A stretch of DNA of 52,855 bases from Eubacteriales bacterium (GTDB lineage Bacteria > Bacillota > Clostridia > Oscillospirales > CAG-272). Location of the stretch: the NCBI GenBank assembly GCA_045638805.1, contig JAZUBZ010000045.1, forward strand, positions 1 to 52,855, written 5' to 3'. Shown here piece after piece: positions 7,202-52,855 of this stretch. Under the pieces are notes generated by a model. It saw only the letters and a program-made list of their open reading frames with translations. It made no database searches and was not told the DNA's origin. Each line of letters starts with the position of its first letter. Position 1 is the first letter of the stretch. The translations under genes and the position numbers were made by a program.

Positions 7202-7381
7202 TTTTACCAATATCGTCTCATTTCAATAAATAAAAACAGATGTCTGCTGACTTCTACAAGGTGTAAAATTCAGCAGACATCTTTCATCAGTTTCGATCGT
7301 AACGAATTTACTTGAGGCGCACTTCACAAGGAAGTACGCCTCAAGGTGTGTTTTCCATAAAGCAGGTTTTACCTAAAAAAC

Positions 7382-7416
7382 AAAAGGAGTATGAACATTT
7401 TGTTCGTACTCCTTTT
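7382..7416. repeat. GGAGTACGAAC-type hairpin, copy 1 of 3
   Basis: AAAAGGAGTATGAACA-ttt-TGTTCGTACTCCTTTT; recurs at 51084 and 52622. Confidence 0.85.
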
Positions 7417-7446
7417 GTCGCGTAGATGTACTGTCGGCGATAATGA

Positions 7447-7568
7447 GCCTCCCTTGTGTAAAGGGAGGTGGCTTGCGAAGCAAGACGGAGGGATTGGAAA
7501 TAGCAAAATTCTACCGAAAACAATCCCTCAGCCGCCTGCGGCGTCAGCTCCCTTTACACAAGGGAGCC
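7447..7568 (-). repeat. REP/REPIN-like palindromic element (GGCTC...GAGGC family), copy 1
   Basis: Terminal inverted arms CTCCCTTGTGTAAAGGGAG / CTCCCTTTACACAAGGGAG and inner GAGGGATT/AATCCCTC; same architecture as 51190-51332 in the opposite orientation. Confidence 0.75.
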
Positions 7569-7654
7569 TTTGGTTTGTGCGCCCCGAAAATCTATCTGCT
7601 TTTCCTGACAAGCACTGCTTTTGTGGACACAAAAGCTAACTTAAAATTACCTTT

Positions 7655-45417: not shown

Positions 45418-45463
45418 GCGCAAAATACACCGCTAAATGCAAAAAACAGGATCGGAGTTAACT

Positions 45464-46300
45464 ATGGAATACATCAGACTTTGGGAAGGAACACCTCCCT
45501 ATTACAACGAAGACTACAAAAATGACGATAACACCGACGTAGTACCCAGTCTGAGTCCGTACGTGCTTCCCGCTCAGAAGGACGAAAACGGAAACACCAA
45601 AAAGCGTGGCTGTGTTATCGTATGTCCCGGTGGATCATACTGTAGCAGAGCATATCACGAGGGAGAGCCCGTATGTGAGTTCTTCAATGAACACGGCATC
45701 AACGGCTTTACCATTAACTACCGCGTTGCTCCCTACGATTACCACGCTATCCGCGCTGACGTCAACCGCGCGGTAAGATGGGTGCGCTATCACGCTGACG
45801 AATACGGAATCGATCCCGACAAGATTGCCATTCTCGGCTTCTCCGCAGGCGGCCACCTTGCTACAATGGGTGCTACTAATTATGACCGCGGTCTTGAAGA
45901 GGGAGACGAGATCGACCGTGTTTCCTGCCGTCCCGACGCAGCTCTTCTTTGCTATGCTGTGATCAGCATGACTCCTGCGCTTACACACGACTTGTCAAGA
46001 GACATCCTCATAGGCAGATTCGATGAAGAGTTCAAGGAAATGCTCACAAAACAGCTTTCCGGTGAGCTTGCAGTAACGGATGATACACCTCCCATGTTCC
46101 TTTGGCACACTGCGGCTGATAACTGTGTTATAGTTGAAAACAGTATCTCAATGGCAACAGCGCTTTCCGCAAAGAAGATTCCCTTCGAGCTTCACGTGTT
46201 CGACAAGGGTGACCACGGCCTCGGCCTTGCAGAGAGTACCCACGGTGCTTCTCAGTGGCCTGCTCTCGCAGCAGATTGGCTGAAGAGGCAGGGCTTCTGA
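45464..46300 (+). CDS. Alpha/beta hydrolase (acetyl/xylan esterase-like), copy 1
   Basis: PGGSY oxyanion loop, GFSAGGH nucleophile, D in HTAADNCV, H in GDHGLG. Confidence 0.9.
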   Translation: MEYIRLWEGTPPYYNEDYKNDDNTDVVPSLSPYVLPAQKDENGNTKKRGCVIVCPGGSYCSRAYHEGEPVCEFFNEHGINGFTINYRVAPYDYHAIRADVNRAVRWVRYHADEYGIDPDKIAILGFSAGGHLATMGATNYDRGLEEGDEIDRVSCRPDAALLCYAVISMTPALTHDLSRDILIGRFDEEFKEMLTKQLSGELAVTDDTPPMFLWHTAADNCVIVENSISMATALSAKKIPFELHVFDKGDHGLGLAESTHGASQWPALAADWLKRQGF

Positions 46301-46301
46301 T

Positions 46302-47108
46302 ATGATCAAAATACCTTTATGGGAAAAGGACATTCCCTTTTGGGACGAGTCCATCCCCCAGACGGCTCCTTATCTGACACCGTATCTTCCCTCTCCCGAC
46401 GCAGAGAAAAAACGCGGTGCCATCATAATATGTCCCGGTGGGTCATACGTTATGAAGGCAGACCATGAGGGAAAATCAGCGGCTGAGCTGTTCAGCAAAA
46501 GAGGATTCACCTGCTTCCTCCTTGACTACAGGGTCTATCCCTACGGATACGAGGCTATCCGTGCAGATATCAACCGTGCCGTAAGATGGGTGCGTTACCA
46601 CGCAGACGAGTACGAAATCGCTTCGGACAAGATAGCTCTCATGGGCTTTTCGGCGGGAGGTCATCTTGCCGCAATGGGCGCCACCTGCTACGACCTGGGA
46701 CGGGATGACGGCGACGAGATCGACCGCACGTCCTGCAGACCCGATGCGTCTGTCCCCTGCTACGCAGTCATCAGCATGGTCGATGAGTTCGCCCACGATC
46801 ACAGCCGCTTTGCCCTTCTCGGTAAGGCGCCTCGTGAAAATAGAGATGAGCTGAGAAAAATATATTCCCCTCACCTTGCGGCAGACGAAAACACGCCTCC
46901 CATGTTCCTTTGGCACACTGCCGAGGACAACTGCGTGGACGTGGAAAACAGCATTGCCATGGCGGCATCTCTCAGCCGTCACAAGGTTCCCTTTGAGCTT
47001 CACGTTTTCGACAAGGGTCCCCACAGCATCGGTGTTGACGAAAGCTTTCCCGGTGCTGGACAGTGGGTCGCTCTGTTTGAAAACTGGATCGCAAGACTTG
47101 GATTTTAA
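46302..47108 (+). CDS. Alpha/beta hydrolase, copy 2
   Basis: PGGSY, GFSAGGH, EDNCV, GPHSIG. Confidence 0.9.
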   Translation: MIKIPLWEKDIPFWDESIPQTAPYLTPYLPSPDAEKKRGAIIICPGGSYVMKADHEGKSAAELFSKRGFTCFLLDYRVYPYGYEAIRADINRAVRWVRYHADEYEIASDKIALMGFSAGGHLAAMGATCYDLGRDDGDEIDRTSCRPDASVPCYAVISMVDEFAHDHSRFALLGKAPRENRDELRKIYSPHLAADENTPPMFLWHTAEDNCVDVENSIAMAASLSRHKVPFELHVFDKGPHSIGVDESFPGAGQWVALFENWIARLGF

Positions 47109-47143
47109 TAAACACATATCAAATAGAAGGATAGGATATAACC

Positions 47144-47965
47144 ATGGAAAACATCAAGCTTTGGGACAATGGTACTCCCTATTTTAACGAAGAGTACGGT
47201 CAGCCCGAAACATACTTGACACCTCACATCGTTACCGCAGAGACGGACGAAAACGGTAACGTCAAGAAGACCGGTTGCGTTATCGTATGTGCCGGCGGCG
47301 GCTACGAGTTCCGCGCGAACCACGAGGGAGACCCCGTTGCAGAATTTTTCAATCAGTACGGCATCAGCTCCTTCAACCTTGCGTACCGTTTTGCGCCCTA
47401 TAATTACTACGCTATCCGCGCAGACATCAACCGTGCAGTAAGATGGGTACGTTATCACGCGGAAGAATACAATATCGACCCCGATAAGATCGCAGTTCTC
47501 GGCTTCTCCGCAGGCGGTCACCTCGCTTGCATGGGTGCGACACAGTATGACCGCGGTCTTGAGGAAGGCGACGAGATCGATCGCACGTCCTGCAGACCCG
47601 ACGCGGCTGTTCTTTGCTACCCCGTTGTGACTCTTGCATCTGACTATACTCACAGAGGTACCCGCGCAAATCTTCTCGACGGTATCGAAGAGCCGCTCAG
47701 AAGTGAGCTTTTAGAAAAGCTTTCCGGCCAGAATGCTGTAACCCCCGATACTCCCCCCACTTTCCTTTACCACAACGCAGATGACGACGGAGTACCGCCC
47801 GAAAACTCCATCAACATGGCGGCAGCTCTTTCCAAGAACAAGATCCCCTTCGAGCTCCACTTGTTCCCCAACGGCGGACACGGCGGCGGACTTTACCGTG
47901 ATCTTGAGGGAACACGTCAGTGGCCTCATCTTGCAGCAAACTGGTTAAAGAGACTCGGATTTTAA
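47144..47965 (+). CDS. Alpha/beta hydrolase, copy 3
   Basis: AGGGY, GFSAGGH, DDDGV, GGHGGG. Confidence 0.9.
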   Translation: MENIKLWDNGTPYFNEEYGQPETYLTPHIVTAETDENGNVKKTGCVIVCAGGGYEFRANHEGDPVAEFFNQYGISSFNLAYRFAPYNYYAIRADINRAVRWVRYHAEEYNIDPDKIAVLGFSAGGHLACMGATQYDRGLEEGDEIDRTSCRPDAAVLCYPVVTLASDYTHRGTRANLLDGIEEPLRSELLEKLSGQNAVTPDTPPTFLYHNADDDGVPPENSINMAAALSKNKIPFELHLFPNGGHGGGLYRDLEGTRQWPHLAANWLKRLGF

Positions 47966-47996
47966 GACAACATAAGACAATAGGAGAAATATACAA

Positions 47997-48812
47997 ATGG
48001 AAAACATCAAGCTTTGGGAGAAAAATACTCCCTTTTACGATCCCTCATTCGGTCAGCCCGAAACAGAAATGACCCCTTACATCGTACCCGAGACCCGTGA
48101 CGAAAACGGAAACGTCAAGAAGACCGGTTGCGTTATCGTTGCCCCCGGCGGAGGATACACACATACAGAGCCTCGCGAGGGAGGTCCCGTTGCCGAAATG
48201 CTTAACGAGGTCGGCATCTCCGCATTCGTACTTCATTACCGCTTTGAGCCCTACGATTACAAGGCAATCGTTGAGGACATCAAGCGTGCGGTAAGATGGG
48301 TGCGTTACAACGCAGACAAGTACAACATAGATCCCGATAAGATCGCAACAATGGGATTCTCCGCAGGCGGTCACCTTTCCGGACTGTCCGCTACCCTCTT
48401 CGACTACGGACGTGAGGATGGCGACGAGATCGACCGAGTTTCTTGCAGGCCCGACGCTGCTATTCTGTGCTACGCTGTTCTTACGATGAATCTTGACATT
48501 GGTGACGACATCTCCCGCGGTGTATTCATCGGTGATGCTGAAGCAGGCGGCGAATTGGAGCGTATCCACTCTCCTTACTATAACGTAAGAGAAGATACAC
48601 CTCCCGTGCTTATGTGGCACACCAGTGCAGACCCCATAGTTCCCGTTGAAAACGTGCTCAGAATGTCAACTGCTCTTTCCGCAAAGAAGATTCCCTTTGA
48701 GCTTCACGTATTCCCCGAAGGCGCACACGGTCTTTCCCTTGCAAAGGACATTCCCGGCACCTGTCAGTGGCCGCCTCTCGTACAGAACTGGCTGAAGAGA
48801 CAGGGATTCTGA
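47997..48812 (+). CDS. Alpha/beta hydrolase, copy 4
   Basis: PGGGY, GFSAGGH, ADPIV, GAHGLS. Confidence 0.9.
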   Translation: MENIKLWEKNTPFYDPSFGQPETEMTPYIVPETRDENGNVKKTGCVIVAPGGGYTHTEPREGGPVAEMLNEVGISAFVLHYRFEPYDYKAIVEDIKRAVRWVRYNADKYNIDPDKIATMGFSAGGHLSGLSATLFDYGREDGDEIDRVSCRPDAAILCYAVLTMNLDIGDDISRGVFIGDAEAGGELERIHSPYYNVREDTPPVLMWHTSADPIVPVENVLRMSTALSAKKIPFELHVFPEGAHGLSLAKDIPGTCQWPPLVQNWLKRQGF

Positions 48813-50204: not shown

Positions 50205-51068
50205 ATGAACAAGTTAACTGATTCTTTCGTTCTTTCCAACGGCGTTAAGGTTCCCTGCATCGGCTACGGAACATACCTCGCTCCCAACGGTGAAGTTACC
50301 AAGAATGCCGTTTTAGAGGCTCTTAAGGTTGGCTACCGCCACGTTGACACCGCATTTGCATACGGCAACGAAACTGCTGTAGGCGAGGGCATCAAGGCTT
50401 CCGGCATCGCAAGAGACGAGATCTTCGTAACAACCAAGCACTGGGTAACCATGCGTGGCTACGAAAAGGCTACAGAGGCTATCGACATCTCTCTCAAGAA
50501 CCTCGGTCTTGACTACCTCGACCTTTACCTCATTCACTGGCCTTGCGTAGAAAAGGTTTCCCCCGATTGGAAGGAGATCAACGCAGGTACATGGAAGGCA
50601 TTTGAGGATGCATACAAGAGCGGTAAGATCCGCGCTATCGGTGTTTCCAACTTCCAGAAGAAGCACTATGACGCACTCGCTGAGATGTGCGAGATCAAGC
50701 CCATGGTAAACCAGATCGAGTTCCACCCCGGTTACACTCAGATGGATACCGTAAACTACTCCAAGGAGCAGGGCATGCTCGTTCAGGCGTTCAGCCCCCT
50801 CGGATGCGGCGCAGTTCTCTCCGACGCTACACTTGCAGAGATCGCTGCAAAGTACGGCAAGAGCGTAGCTCAGGTTTGCCTCAGATTCGTTCTTCAGTCC
50901 GGACTCAACGTACTCACCAAGTCTGTAACTCCCTCAAGAATTCTTGAGAACACACAGATCTTTGACTTTGAGCTTTCCGCTGAGGATATGGCTACCATCG
51001 CTGCTATGCCCGAGCTTGGCTTCACAGGCTGGCTCCCCGAAAACGCACCTGCAGACGCTATCGCGTAA
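50205..51068 (+). CDS. Aldo/keto reductase
   Basis: GYRHVDTA..Y.NE, LDYLDLYLIHWP, IGVSNF, NQIEFHP. Confidence 0.95.
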   Translation: MNKLTDSFVLSNGVKVPCIGYGTYLAPNGEVTKNAVLEALKVGYRHVDTAFAYGNETAVGEGIKASGIARDEIFVTTKHWVTMRGYEKATEAIDISLKNLGLDYLDLYLIHWPCVEKVSPDWKEINAGTWKAFEDAYKSGKIRAIGVSNFQKKHYDALAEMCEIKPMVNQIEFHPGYTQMDTVNYSKEQGMLVQAFSPLGCGAVLSDATLAEIAAKYGKSVAQVCLRFVLQSGLNVLTKSVTPSRILENTQIFDFELSAEDMATIAAMPELGFTGWLPENAPADAIA

Positions 51069-51083
51069 GTTAAGTTAATAAGT

Positions 51084-51332
51084 AAAGGAGTACGAACAAA
51101 ATTGTTCGTACTCCTTTTTTGTGGCTCTTGTATACATTAATTTTGCAATGTAGTACTCTGTAAAAACTAAAACTTTACTTTTTTCCATAGGCTCTCACTA
51201 TGGGAGAGCTGTCGCTACACTTTGCCAAAGGTAAATGAGCTCGCGACTGAGAGGGCAATTTTAGGCTCCACCCTCTGGTACGAACATATTCGCTTCGTGA
51301 AGTGTAGTACCACCTCTCTCGGAGGGCGAGGC
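51084..51332 (+). repeat. Long direct repeat, left copy: GGAGTACGAAC hairpin + AT-rich spacer + REP-like palindromic element (51190-51332)
   Basis: 51084-51315 aligns colinearly with 52622-52855. The opening hairpin also serves as the AKR terminator. Confidence 0.92.
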
Positions 51333-51408
51333 ATTTTTTTAGATTTGCTGTTTATAAAGTTTTAGCTGAAATAAAGTACTACGGCGCCCTAGGCAATCGA
51401 ATATTTGG

Positions 51409-51888
51409 CTACAGCCATTCTGTAGGTTCGGCAAGGTTGATTACCGTCTTACCTTGCTTAATAGCGTATTGAACAGTTTGCCAAGCACCGCCATGTTGTC
51501 TCTCGATACAGCAGATAATCAAATCAGCACGGTCTACCATTTCGCGGTTGCGTATTTTAATAGCTGCTTTCGGGTAGACTTTCGATGCTTCGTAAGAAAT
51601 CTCCACATTACTGTAGTAGTTATGGTATGCTTCTTTGTTGTTACGGTACTCAGCTCTCAAATACGGCAGTACAAGCACGAGAGAGCTGTTATCGTCCTTG
51701 TACCGCTTTCGTACCCGAAGTACCGCAGAAGAAGCAAACTGATCGAACTCTCCGTCACGCCCTACAAGAAAATTCACATATTCCTTTTCCGACAGTAAAC
51801 GGTATATATGTTCCTCCAACCGCTCCTCTACCCTGAACGGATTGTCAATGTACCGATGTCCAAAGAATGCTACTGTAAAAATATCCAT
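51409..51888 (-). CDS. SLOG-superfamily (YpsA/DUF1273-like) protein
   Basis: VAFFGHR, G..GEFD, LVLPY, RNREMVDRAD, GGAWQTVQYA..GK.VINL; AAGGAG RBS. Confidence 0.8.
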   Translation of the reverse strand: MDIFTVAFFGHRYIDNPFRVEERLEEHIYRLLSEKEYVNFLVGRDGEFDQFASSAVLRVRKRYKDDNSSLVLVLPYLRAEYRNNKEAYHNYYSNVEISYEASKVYPKAAIKIRNREMVDRADLIICCIERQHGGAWQTVQYAIKQGKTVINLAEPTEWL

Positions 51889-51902
51889 ATGTCACTCCTT
51901 GC

Positions 51903-52048
51903 AAAATACCCACCGAACGTTTATCTGTTCGGTGGGTTATTCTAATGACTCAGCTATCCGTTTGGTTCCGACTTCGAAGAGCCACGGCCTTACTCCGCAA
52001 AGGATGGGGATATACCTTCTCACAAGGCAGATGCCCTAAATTATCATG
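51903..52048 (-). ncRNA. Candidate structured leader RNA/sRNA followed by an intrinsic terminator
   Basis: Several short helices folded by eye, then ACCCACCGAAC..GTTCGGTGGGT-ATTTT immediately before the SLOG RBS. Confidence 0.45.
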
Positions 52049-52089
52049 TGTATAGCGGTCATTTAGAACCGTGTTTTACTGTTTTTTGC

Positions 52090-52156
52090 ATACTATAAGC
52101 ACAATTATTACATCTATAAGTGTTTATAGTATAGCATATAATCGAAACAATATCAA
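52090..52156 (-). promoter_or_regulatory. sigmaA promoter with overlapping palindromic operators
   Basis: Minus strand TTGATA-N17-TATACT with TG extension; inverted repeats TACTATAAGCAC/GTGTTTATAGTA and CTATAA-gtgt-TTATAG lie at and downstream of the start site. Confidence 0.65.
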
Positions 52157-52222
52157 TAGTCTGTGGAATATTAGTTTCGATATTTATAGACTATTAGTAG
52201 TGTGATAAGGATGGGTAATACT

Positions 52223-52561
52223 ATGAGTAATATTACAAAAGCTGTTGGACAGCGTATCAGAAACTACAGAACGAAAAAGGGTCTCAGCCAAGAAAAGCTC
52301 GCAGAGATTTCCGGTTGTCATCCGACCTACATCGGACAACTTGAGCGTGGCGAAAAGAACGCAACTATTGAAAGCATCGAACGAATCACCGCCGCACTTG
52401 GTATTTCTCTTTCAAAGTTATTTGAGAAATTAGGCGGACAGGATGACGTTGAAAATGATATTCCTCTCGCTTGCTATGAGTTACTCTCTGCCAAGTCCAA
52501 GGGAGAACAGGAACAGCTATACAAAATTTTGCTTGAGATGGACAAGTACAAGGCTAACTGA
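52223..52561 (+). CDS. XRE-family HTH transcriptional regulator (C-protein-like)
   Basis: VGQRIRNYR..KGLSQEKLAE.SG.HPTYIGQLERGEKNAT. Confidence 0.92.
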   Translation: MSNITKAVGQRIRNYRTKKGLSQEKLAEISGCHPTYIGQLERGEKNATIESIERITAALGISLSKLFEKLGGQDDVENDIPLACYELLSAKSKGEQEQLYKILLEMDKYKAN

Positions 52562-52577
52562 CATCTATGACAGAAAA

Positions 52578-52609
52578 AGGACCACCGGCTAAGCTAAGCT
52601 GGTGGTTTT
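52578..52609 (+). terminator. Terminator of the XRE gene
   Basis: ACCACCGGCT-aagcta-AGCTGGTGGT-TTT. Confidence 0.7.
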
Positions 52610-52621
52610 CTTATATCAACC

Positions 52622-52855
52622 AAAGGAGTACGAGAGGTTTTGTTCGTACTCCTTTTTGTCATTCTTGTATACAGTAATTTTTGTAATGTACTACCCTGTA
52701 AACACTAAAAATTTACTTTTTTTCATAGGCTCTCACTATGGGAGAGCTGTCGCTGCACTTTGCCAAAGGTAAATGTGCTCGCGACTGAGAGGGCAATTTT
52801 AGGCTCCCCCCTCTCCGGTACGAACACATTCGCTTAGCGAAGTGTAGTACCACCT
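52622..52855 (+). repeat. Long direct repeat, right copy (truncated by the window end)
   Basis: Colinear, slightly diverged copy of 51084-51315. Confidence 0.92.

Follow-up and report, generated by a model that had tools for sequence, protein, structure and literature searches.

Several bacterial systems place small units of DNA between repeats. Integron cassettes are compact, gene-sized units without a recombinase of their own, in which the open reading frame (ORF) runs up to or into a hairpin repeat, attC; pdif modules are bounded by 28-bp XerC-spacer-XerD sites in alternating orientation; cis-mobilizable elements (CIMEs) with attL and attR are small, integrase-less inserts between direct repeats at the 3' end of a host gene; insertion sequences of the IS1634/IS1549 type have long, variable target duplications; and in CRISPR arrays Cas1-Cas2 activity duplicates a repeat that is palindromic. 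Here we describe a module of an XRE-family helix-turn-helix (HTH) regulator gene and a SLOG (YpsA-like) gene, which lies between two structured direct repeats of 280 bp at the end of contig JAZUBZ010000045.1 from a Eubacteriales bacterium (GCA_045638805.1). The window analyzed is this whole contig of 52,855 nt, termed C45, in a genome assembly (G000) of 1.73 Mb in 116 contigs that is 71% complete. Our preferred reading, to which we give a probability of about 0.5, is that XRE-SLOG is an inserted, self-regulated accessory module and that the 280-bp repeats are a duplicated target, not cassette-borne sites.

A repeat search and blastn aligned 51084-51315 with 52622-52855 as colinear copies offset by 1538 bp, with 88.9% identity over 235 columns. 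This agrees with the original prediction of diverged ~230-bp repeats, and the homology is longer than was noted there: the left copy continues to about 51363, and with the right copy extended into contig C71, 249 of 277 columns match (~90%). Each copy opens as claimed with a hairpin, AAAGGAGTACGA...TCGTACTCCTTT (hairpin H), which in the left copy is a perfect stem of 16+16 nt, begins 15 nt after the stop codon (51066-51068) of an aldo/keto reductase (AKR) gene, again as claimed, and is predicted to double as the AKR terminator. The repeat is a mosaic in which this terminator hairpin is followed by a spacer of 32 nt and a foldback repeat of ~215 bp, and the full block occurs as two copies only in G000 and as two in the sister species G003. 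ORF and Pfam analysis confirmed that the repeats enclose one unit, comprising the SLOG gene, a divergent control region, and the XRE gene with its own terminator. The last 79 bases of the window are an exact overlap with the first 79 of C71 reversed, and variants particular to the right copy carry on into C71, where a ferredoxin-like gene and then a Crp/Fnr gene come after the repeat, as in G003. Neither the C71 extension nor the colinear G003 contig held a further repeat-gene-repeat cassette; the array that, by the original prediction, might continue beyond the window gives way to ordinary genes.

The locus shares with integron cassettes the features given above, but no IntI, attI or Pc adjoins it, there is no array, local sequence, directly repeated and nearly identical, makes up both flanks whereas integrons have different attC sites, and the module carries its own divergent promoters. 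The attC core motifs RYYYAAC...GTTRRRY (R'/R'') were not evident by eye in the hairpin flanks. Unlike pdif sites, the flanks are direct and 280 bp long. A classical transposon differs as well, since the module consists only of the XRE and SLOG ORFs, its ends are not conserved, and its flanks range from 33 to 351 nt across loci.

The range of flank lengths comes from 37 further SLOG loci in genomes of the same family, drawn from one set of 30 and one of 9 that included two loci already counted. Each was oriented, and the strongest direct repeat shared by its upstream and downstream flanks was sought. Loci were scored as positive if the repeat score was at least 48, the repeat started no more than 120 nt from the SLOG end, and the spacing was 850-1800. 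An adjacent flanking repeat was found at 7 of the 37 loci, versus 7 of 800 random G000 positions with the same geometry, and the control positives were mostly coding, from tandem paralogous genes. An eighth repeat, of 110 nt in G209, is non-adjacent, two further loci were weak, and 27 gave nothing. The interiors of the positive loci (850-1130 bp) consist of an XRE HTH gene and a SLOG gene, the partner ORF being of XRE type in all eight cases tested; the stop codons of both genes border on or overlap the flanking repeats; and every repeat holds a terminator-like hairpin. Apart from one homologous pair, the repeats differ between loci in sequence and length. Those of L055, L059 and L113 occur as two copies only in their own genomes, and the 351-nt repeat of L107 is a mosaic of dispersed modules that is found at full length only in the two flanking copies. 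In G312 the right repeat lies directly 3' of the stop codon of an AMP-ligase-like gene (named from its sequence), and in G008 one copy lies directly after rpsI. The idea of a cassette flanked by delimiting repeats thus stands in part: bracketing recurs and the repeats abut stop codons, but the repeats are specific to each locus.

Table 1 Features of the XRE-SLOG locus and flanking repeats at other SLOG loci. Positions are those of the window unless a genome is named.
Feature	Position	Strand	Evidence or remarks
Left direct-repeat copy (hairpin + spacer + foldback element)	51084..51363	+	Repeat search, blastn, alignment
Hairpin H, copy a; A-tract/stem/T-tract, terminator-like	51084..51117	.	Arms 100% complementary, 16+16 nt
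Spacer, 32 nt	51118..51149	+	Alignments
Foldback structured repeat (family 1), copy a; hairpins P1-P5, T-run at end	51150..51363	+	Other copies, alignment, covariation
SLOG (YpsA-like) gene, 159 aa	51409..51888	-	Pfam YpsA 25.2 bits, AlphaFold model, Foldseek
Terminator-like hairpin with U-run, SLOG 5' leader, shortly before the ribosome-binding site	51908..51937	-	Read from sequence
Divergent control region	52123..52193	.	SLOG promoter-like site 52156-52128 (minus), 10/12 matches in promoter scan; inverted repeat
XRE-family HTH regulator gene	52202..52561	+	Longest ORF; Pfam HTH_3 E=3e-15
XRE terminator-like hairpin with T-run, inside the module	52581..52612	+	Read from sequence; missing from consensus-scan list
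Right direct-repeat copy	52622..52855	+	Truncated at contig end; resumes on C71 reverse complement
Flanking repeat at L055, 33 nt, perfect	G278:C10
Flanking repeat at L059, 40 nt, perfect	G262:C26
Flanking repeat at L061, 60 nt	G141
Flanking repeat at L065, 225 nt	G265
Flanking repeat at L044, 36 nt	G008
Flanking repeat at L107, 351 nt	G140
Flanking repeat at L113, 40 nt	G312:C60
AKR gene, left host flank	50205..51068	+	ORF; Pfam Aldo_ket_red E=1e-45
Third copy of hairpin H	7382..7415	.	Sits in partial copy of ~190-nt multi-hairpin element
Another member of the foldback superfamily	7430..7570	-	Core regex, alignment

Because the flanks at other loci are different, locus-specific sequences, the repeats are unlikely to be cassette-borne sites, and the composite, host-like nature of the window repeat, parts of which are dispersed alone, counts for an origin in the target. 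The target would have been nearly all of the intergenic region between the convergent AKR and ferredoxin-like genes, already equipped with the AKR terminator hairpin and a resident foldback repeat; in its pre-insertion state this region would have measured ~315 nt, 280 nt of which are now twofold. The repeats would then be a very long, target-derived 'target-site duplication', with each copy, after insertion, giving one of the module's outward-facing ends a terminator-like structure, and gene conversion since then would keep the two copies alike. That the duplication arose at insertion, and how, we infer; a cruciform-guided staggered cut is our guess, in which strand transfer on either side of the extruded hairpin or structured block would be followed by repair that copies the whole block. 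IS1634/IS1549-type elements and CRISPR repeat duplication offer an analogy only, in that an insert comes to lie between direct copies of tens to hundreds of target bases, but neither a transposase, nor Cas1, nor terminal inverted repeats (TIRs) accompany XRE-SLOG. With CIMEs the likeness extends to the occurrence of XRE-SLOG on conjugative-element backbones and to rpsI, the repeat neighbor in G008, a known integration target in streptococci; however, random decay would hardly leave seven independent remnants with XRE-SLOG and nothing else, their stop codons abutting the repeats.

The unusual feature is that terminator regions are duplicated repeatedly, each time with a sequence specific to the locus, around an XRE-SLOG module that has no recombinase. 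If the flanks are target duplications, they point to an insertion process that copies entire terminator hairpins without an element-encoded recombinase. This would be a new route by which small accessory or regulatory modules enter the chromosomes of gut bacteria while leaving neighboring operons unbroken, and a unique hairpin repeat on either side of a small unit would be a signature of recent insertion in metagenome-assembled genomes (MAGs). Should this reading fail, what remains at the locus is an ordinary gene pair with a copy of a dispersed repeat on each side. The portions of the literature that our search reached held nothing on these repeats or on hairpin-duplicating, target-structure-guided insertion in bacteria.

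Among 40 relatives, the repeat pair was found only in G003, besides one 31-nt match in G019. A single G003 contig is colinear over the C45/C71 join, with the order CinA, AKR, repeat, SLOG, XRE, repeat, and then, on the opposite strand, a 236-aa 4Fe-4S protein and a Crp/Fnr regulator. Across the four copies in the two genomes, 10 informative sites group the copies within a genome and none groups positional orthologs, and a 10-nt deletion is common to both G003 copies. As copies within a genome are closer to each other than to their positional counterparts, the two are judged to be homogenized by gene conversion, and this four-copy pattern, together with retention of the locus in G003, indicates that the arrangement is older than the split between G000 and G003. 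XRE-SLOG was absent downstream of the orthologous AKR gene in all six genus genomes read (G019, G007, G015, G016, G008 and G009), where another terminator and other genes come after AKR and synteny ends at the AKR stop codon. There is thus presence/absence variation without a clean empty site: AKR without the module was found, but AKR followed by a single repeat, the empty site that the original prediction had suggested looking for, was not. Searches for empty sites centered on G008, G278, G262 and G312 met flanks that were too diverged, G312 alone being informative: three of its congeners carry the AMP-ligase-like gene at a module-free ortholog locus, followed in each by its own, different terminator.

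Several observations weigh against target duplication. Flanking repeats are a minority pattern, lacking at 30 of the 37 family loci and found at 0 of 20 metagenome loci scored, and if adjacency is waived, 73 of the 800 random positions (9%) have some repeat with a score of 48 or more nearby. At 225-351 nt, the longer duplications far exceed any fixed transposase stagger, and duplication length varies; the XRE-SLOG modules have no TIRs, conserved ends or linked recombinase. Because of gene conversion, the identity of the two copies is silent on when and how they arose. No same-species empty site with a single copy was found in a collection that holds one genome per species and in which flanks are 70-90% identical. 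The flanking hairpins of L044 and L055, from two different genera, are homologous, which fits a travelling or specifically targeted site better, since repeats derived purely from the target would be expected to share such homology only if insertion were target-specific. Hairpin H is joined in rumen and gut contigs to many different flanks on both sides, with loose ends at 51084 and 51118. Finally, among public sequencing runs, all searched as contigs and none with more than 25% of the sampled words, a contig of 156 nt from run X1 passes from 51100 straight to 52653, the joint that a single-copy allele would have; at a depth of 3.3 and with 30 nt on the shorter side, this joint is weak and a hint only.

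The last three of these points would be at home with a recombination site that the module carries along, as attC or pdif sites are carried: hairpin H, alone or with the block, would be the site at which a circle integrates into another copy. Hairpin H is indeed conserved, its stem being present in 74 of 401 family genomes and 38 of 97 genera at one to six copies each (the reversed control pattern occurred in three genomes), and stop codons abut the repeats in the style of integron cassettes. A single hairpin similar to those of G008 and G278 stands at C29:18783 in G000 with homologous downstream sequence; along with the host genes next to the G312 and G008 repeats, this hairpin also counts for a host origin of the flanks and so for target duplication. 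The two window copies demonstrably recombine, and on plasmid pRUMAL02 of R. albus 7 a SLOG gene has a tyrosine integrase gene on either side. However, apart from L044 and L055, the flanking repeats are unrelated between loci, several are unique to their own locus, and the long ones are mosaics of unrelated dispersed modules. Hairpin H lies inside, or abuts part of, one conserved ~190-nt multi-hairpin element in 25 of the 30 loci printed, with no cassette adjoining, and in the window there is no array, no recombinase on the contig, and a module with its own promoters. The repeat does not behave as a conserved cassette-borne recombination site, as had been proposed, since the flanks are locus-specific, the four tested are unique at full length, and the parts of the window repeat are dispersed. 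We therefore consider a travelling site unlikely; it would call for either a hairpin-specific recombinase acting in trans or RecA acting on the shared 30-350 bp, either of which would regenerate site-module-site.

Pfam searches of the window contig for Phage_integrase, Resolvase, rve, DDE_Tnp_1, Y1_Tnp and TnpB-type domains gave no match, confirming that no transposase or integrase is visible there. Elsewhere, G000 has five tyrosine recombinase matches over the Pfam cut-off and one weak one, two serine recombinase matches, and two rve matches, the latter of which look like IS3-type genes. The PF00589 matches lie on C24, C89, C53, C29, C21 and, weakly, C22, with none on C45. PF01797 (Y1 HUH/RAYT), DDE_Tnp_1 and TnpB-type domains had no matches in the assembled 71% of the genome. 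A partner tyrosine recombinase or RAYT, for which a check had been proposed, was thus not found linked to the module.

The distribution of the module itself supports its description as a self-contained, cassette-like unit, in the sense of a discrete, horizontally distributed XRE-SLOG pair. SLOG homologs were found in 46 of the 301 family genomes, spread over 31 of 97 genera and with two or three copies in several genomes, and 11 of the 54 SLOG places listed begin within ~720 nt of a contig start. In human-gut metagenome contigs, XRE-SLOG pairs are 74-84% and about 87% identical; of 9 loci printed, 4 have a type IV coupling protein gene directly before the pair and 5 a small HTH_36 gene, with variable cargo downstream. 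This patchy distribution, together with the coupling-protein and integrase contexts, indicates a mobile-element-associated accessory module. The two integrase genes of pRUMAL02 (L147, 194293-200745) are inverted and paralogous, with an inverted repeat of 44 nt (80% complementary) formed by their 5' ends.

It may instead be that nothing mobile is involved, the mosaic copies having come to flank an ordinary gene pair by independent spread or local segmental duplication, with gene conversion since. The repeat components are certainly dispersed, in genomes dense in modular hairpin and foldback repeats: blastn found the foldback element solo at C23:24757-24958 (87%) and C97:5661-5864 (84%), and self-comparison of the 1.7 Mb of G000 gave 178 intra-contig direct-repeat pairs. 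The abundant dispersed element at other intergenic sites, which the original prediction had named as grounds for rejecting a cassette system, is therefore real for the components (at C23, C97 and others), and as dispersed elements go the repeat is of an ordinary kind, though one not yet described. That some random positions have a repeat nearby, that most SLOG loci lack one, and that the copies evolve in concert would all follow. On the other hand, the criteria of adjacency and spacing set the SLOG loci apart from random positions, the 32-nt spacer and exact block order are confined to the two local copies (those at C23 and C97 lack the spacer), short flanks at other loci are perfect and unique in the genome, and the module is missing after AKR in the six genus genomes. 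We judge an entirely immobile origin improbable, and target duplication accounts better for these features.

The foldback core, GAGCTGTCGC-hairpin-GCGACTGAG, is common to other repeat families. As a regex it has 13 matches in G000, one of them at 7430-7570 of the window, and at least 120 matching stretches in other genomes (one genome per species scanned), mostly of Clostridia, as Oscillospiraceae or Ruminococcus-type MAGs, with some in Bifidobacterium, Caulobacterales and others. Alignment resolved five hairpins, P1 to P5, in which P4-P5, the right arm, repeat the left arm (P1-P2) in inverted and degenerate form, and the consensus fold has 47 pairs, 8 with compensatory changes. Rfam 15 covariance searches with the repeat copies, superfamily and cross-phylum examples and both hairpin elements (E to 0.01-1) returned no bacterial family; miRNA-type hairpin matches on the repeat elements were spurious, and resemblances of the core motif to hammerhead-type sequences and Tn3 ends were dropped as unconvincing by eye. 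The repeats recall E. coli REP/BIME, Neisseria NIME/Correia and pneumococcal BOX/RUP elements, being modular, multi-copy, terminator-like hairpin or foldback units dispersed between convergent genes and combined in differing orders. They differ in that the sequence families are unrelated and without Rfam match, the core spans many Clostridia and other phyla, and no Y1/RAYT transposase was found in the incomplete G000. Both repeat components are widespread and conserved, stand outside Rfam, and break assemblies, and their description should aid annotation of Oscillospiraceae and Ruminococcus-type genomes.

A role of the repeat as a functional RNA or terminator-insulator that blocks read-through into and out of the module would be compatible with the other readings and would suit the T-run after P5, which is scored terminator-like, the compensated consensus fold, and a core conserved in many genera and some other phyla, but it is very improbable given the lack of an Rfam match, single-sequence folds only modestly beyond shuffles (z -1.8, -2.3), the failure of a promoter scan to find a promoter-like site in the repeat, and a right arm that is a degenerate inverted copy of the left in the style of foldback DNA.

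The hairpin H at 7382-7415 belongs to a compound site at 7300-7575 of the window, where the partial ~190-nt element is followed directly by the minus-strand foldback repeat. Complete copies of the ~190-nt multi-hairpin element are present in many genera of the family, and Rfam has no match for it.

By the usual definition of miniature inverted-repeat transposable elements, the foldback repeat is non-coding, multi-copy (the 13 core matches) and built of inverted arms with compensatory changes; a short fixed duplication was not found, the flanking repeats of family 1 being unconvincing (scores 17-20). Copies of family 2, which are small TIR-bearing repeats, have flanks of variable length (17-49 nt), each a different whole hairpin. 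Such hairpin flanks, which are like those of the SLOG loci and count for target duplication, were present on all six family 2 copies scored and on one more found by self-comparison; two other copies were too close to contig ends for scoring. BLAST of one family 2 copy matched 43 of 301 family genomes via the inner core alone. No autonomous partner of family 2 was found by pairing end motifs in G000, where the ends recur on no longer element, or by BLAST against the 301 family genomes, and no element-end motif adjoined the two rve-type gene regions checked. A ~180-bp non-coding insert in G015 (its own contig C45; L040 3486-3805) is likewise flanked by 57-nt direct repeats that each hold a whole hairpin, in the style of family 2.

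A wider process is conceivable, though we hold it only tentatively: in rumen and gut Clostridia, recombinase-less insertion beside terminator hairpins would duplicate the hairpin or structured block (17-351 bp) on both sides. It is a similarly speculative suggestion that stop-to-stop XRE-SLOG modules and small TIR-bearing repeats would both be subject to it; other cargo, such as sigma/anti-sigma, XRE-lipoprotein and DUF559-like units, may be as well. The duplicated hairpins would then be terminators for the new genes and possibly handles for later excision.

G000 contains further small gene units with direct-repeat flanks of 27-39 nt that are 91-100% identical, at C56:1291-4316, C93:11484-17441, C34:29971-32071, C14:7231-9257, C23:15011-18123 and C53:8152-8845. 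By ORF reading these carry XRE and sigma-like, sigma/anti-sigma-like, XRE and lipoprotein-like, and DUF559-like genes, and several of the flanks are hairpins that abut a host gene stop codon. At C67:33383-36046, three ~110-nt hairpin-bearing repeats separate small GNAT-like and EamA-like genes, an arrangement closer in appearance to a cassette array than that of the window locus; a related copy of this repeat lies on C29 around 16280.

Within the module, the SLOG protein matched Pfam YpsA (PF06908) with E=1.8e-5, below the cut-off of 27.7 bits. Its AlphaFold model (pLDDT 93.4) had as top Foldseek matches YpsA 2nx2 (E=3e-7), DprA, ShosA, TM1055, MCP, ThsA-SLOG and LOG, and the predicted structure has a Rossmann-like SLOG fold. 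The likeness to YpsA, DprA and ShosA, with YpsA 2nx2 the best, thus lies in the predicted fold, whereas sequence similarity is weak: a profile search of the PDB with the SLOG alignment gave no match, nor did NCBIfam or PADLOC. PHROGs gave one weak match, to a family labelled GTP-binding domain, and matches in phage and plasmid collections were few and distant. The pairing with an XRE gene is not known for B. subtilis ypsA. The start codon of the XRE gene is likely the ATG at 52223, and its homologs start MSDIAKAVGQ.

The inverted repeat in the divergent control region is probably the XRE operator, and the hairpin in the SLOG 5' leader, which has no Rfam match, is a possible attenuator. In run X2, contig depth over 52123-52193 reached ~1277, and in three other runs 38-88, compared with ~4-60 over the rest of the locus, and the run contigs covering the control region diverge past 52193. 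The depth peak and this divergence suggest that the operator-like stretch is common to something far more abundant. One X2 contig (depth 172) lacks 88 nt of the SLOG 5' leader (51959-52046) and has 10 other letters instead. As the intergenic region is much shorter (~140-170 nt) in the modules of other genomes, part of the leader may be an insertion.

Two repeat arrangements lie apart from the module. In G312, a ~130-nt repeat at L113 1-140 (C60) has at least 30 copies, many at contig ends. In the window, 45440-48812 holds four tandem paralogous genes of ~270 aa with 65-74% DNA identity, which are candidates for alpha/beta-hydrolases or esterases.

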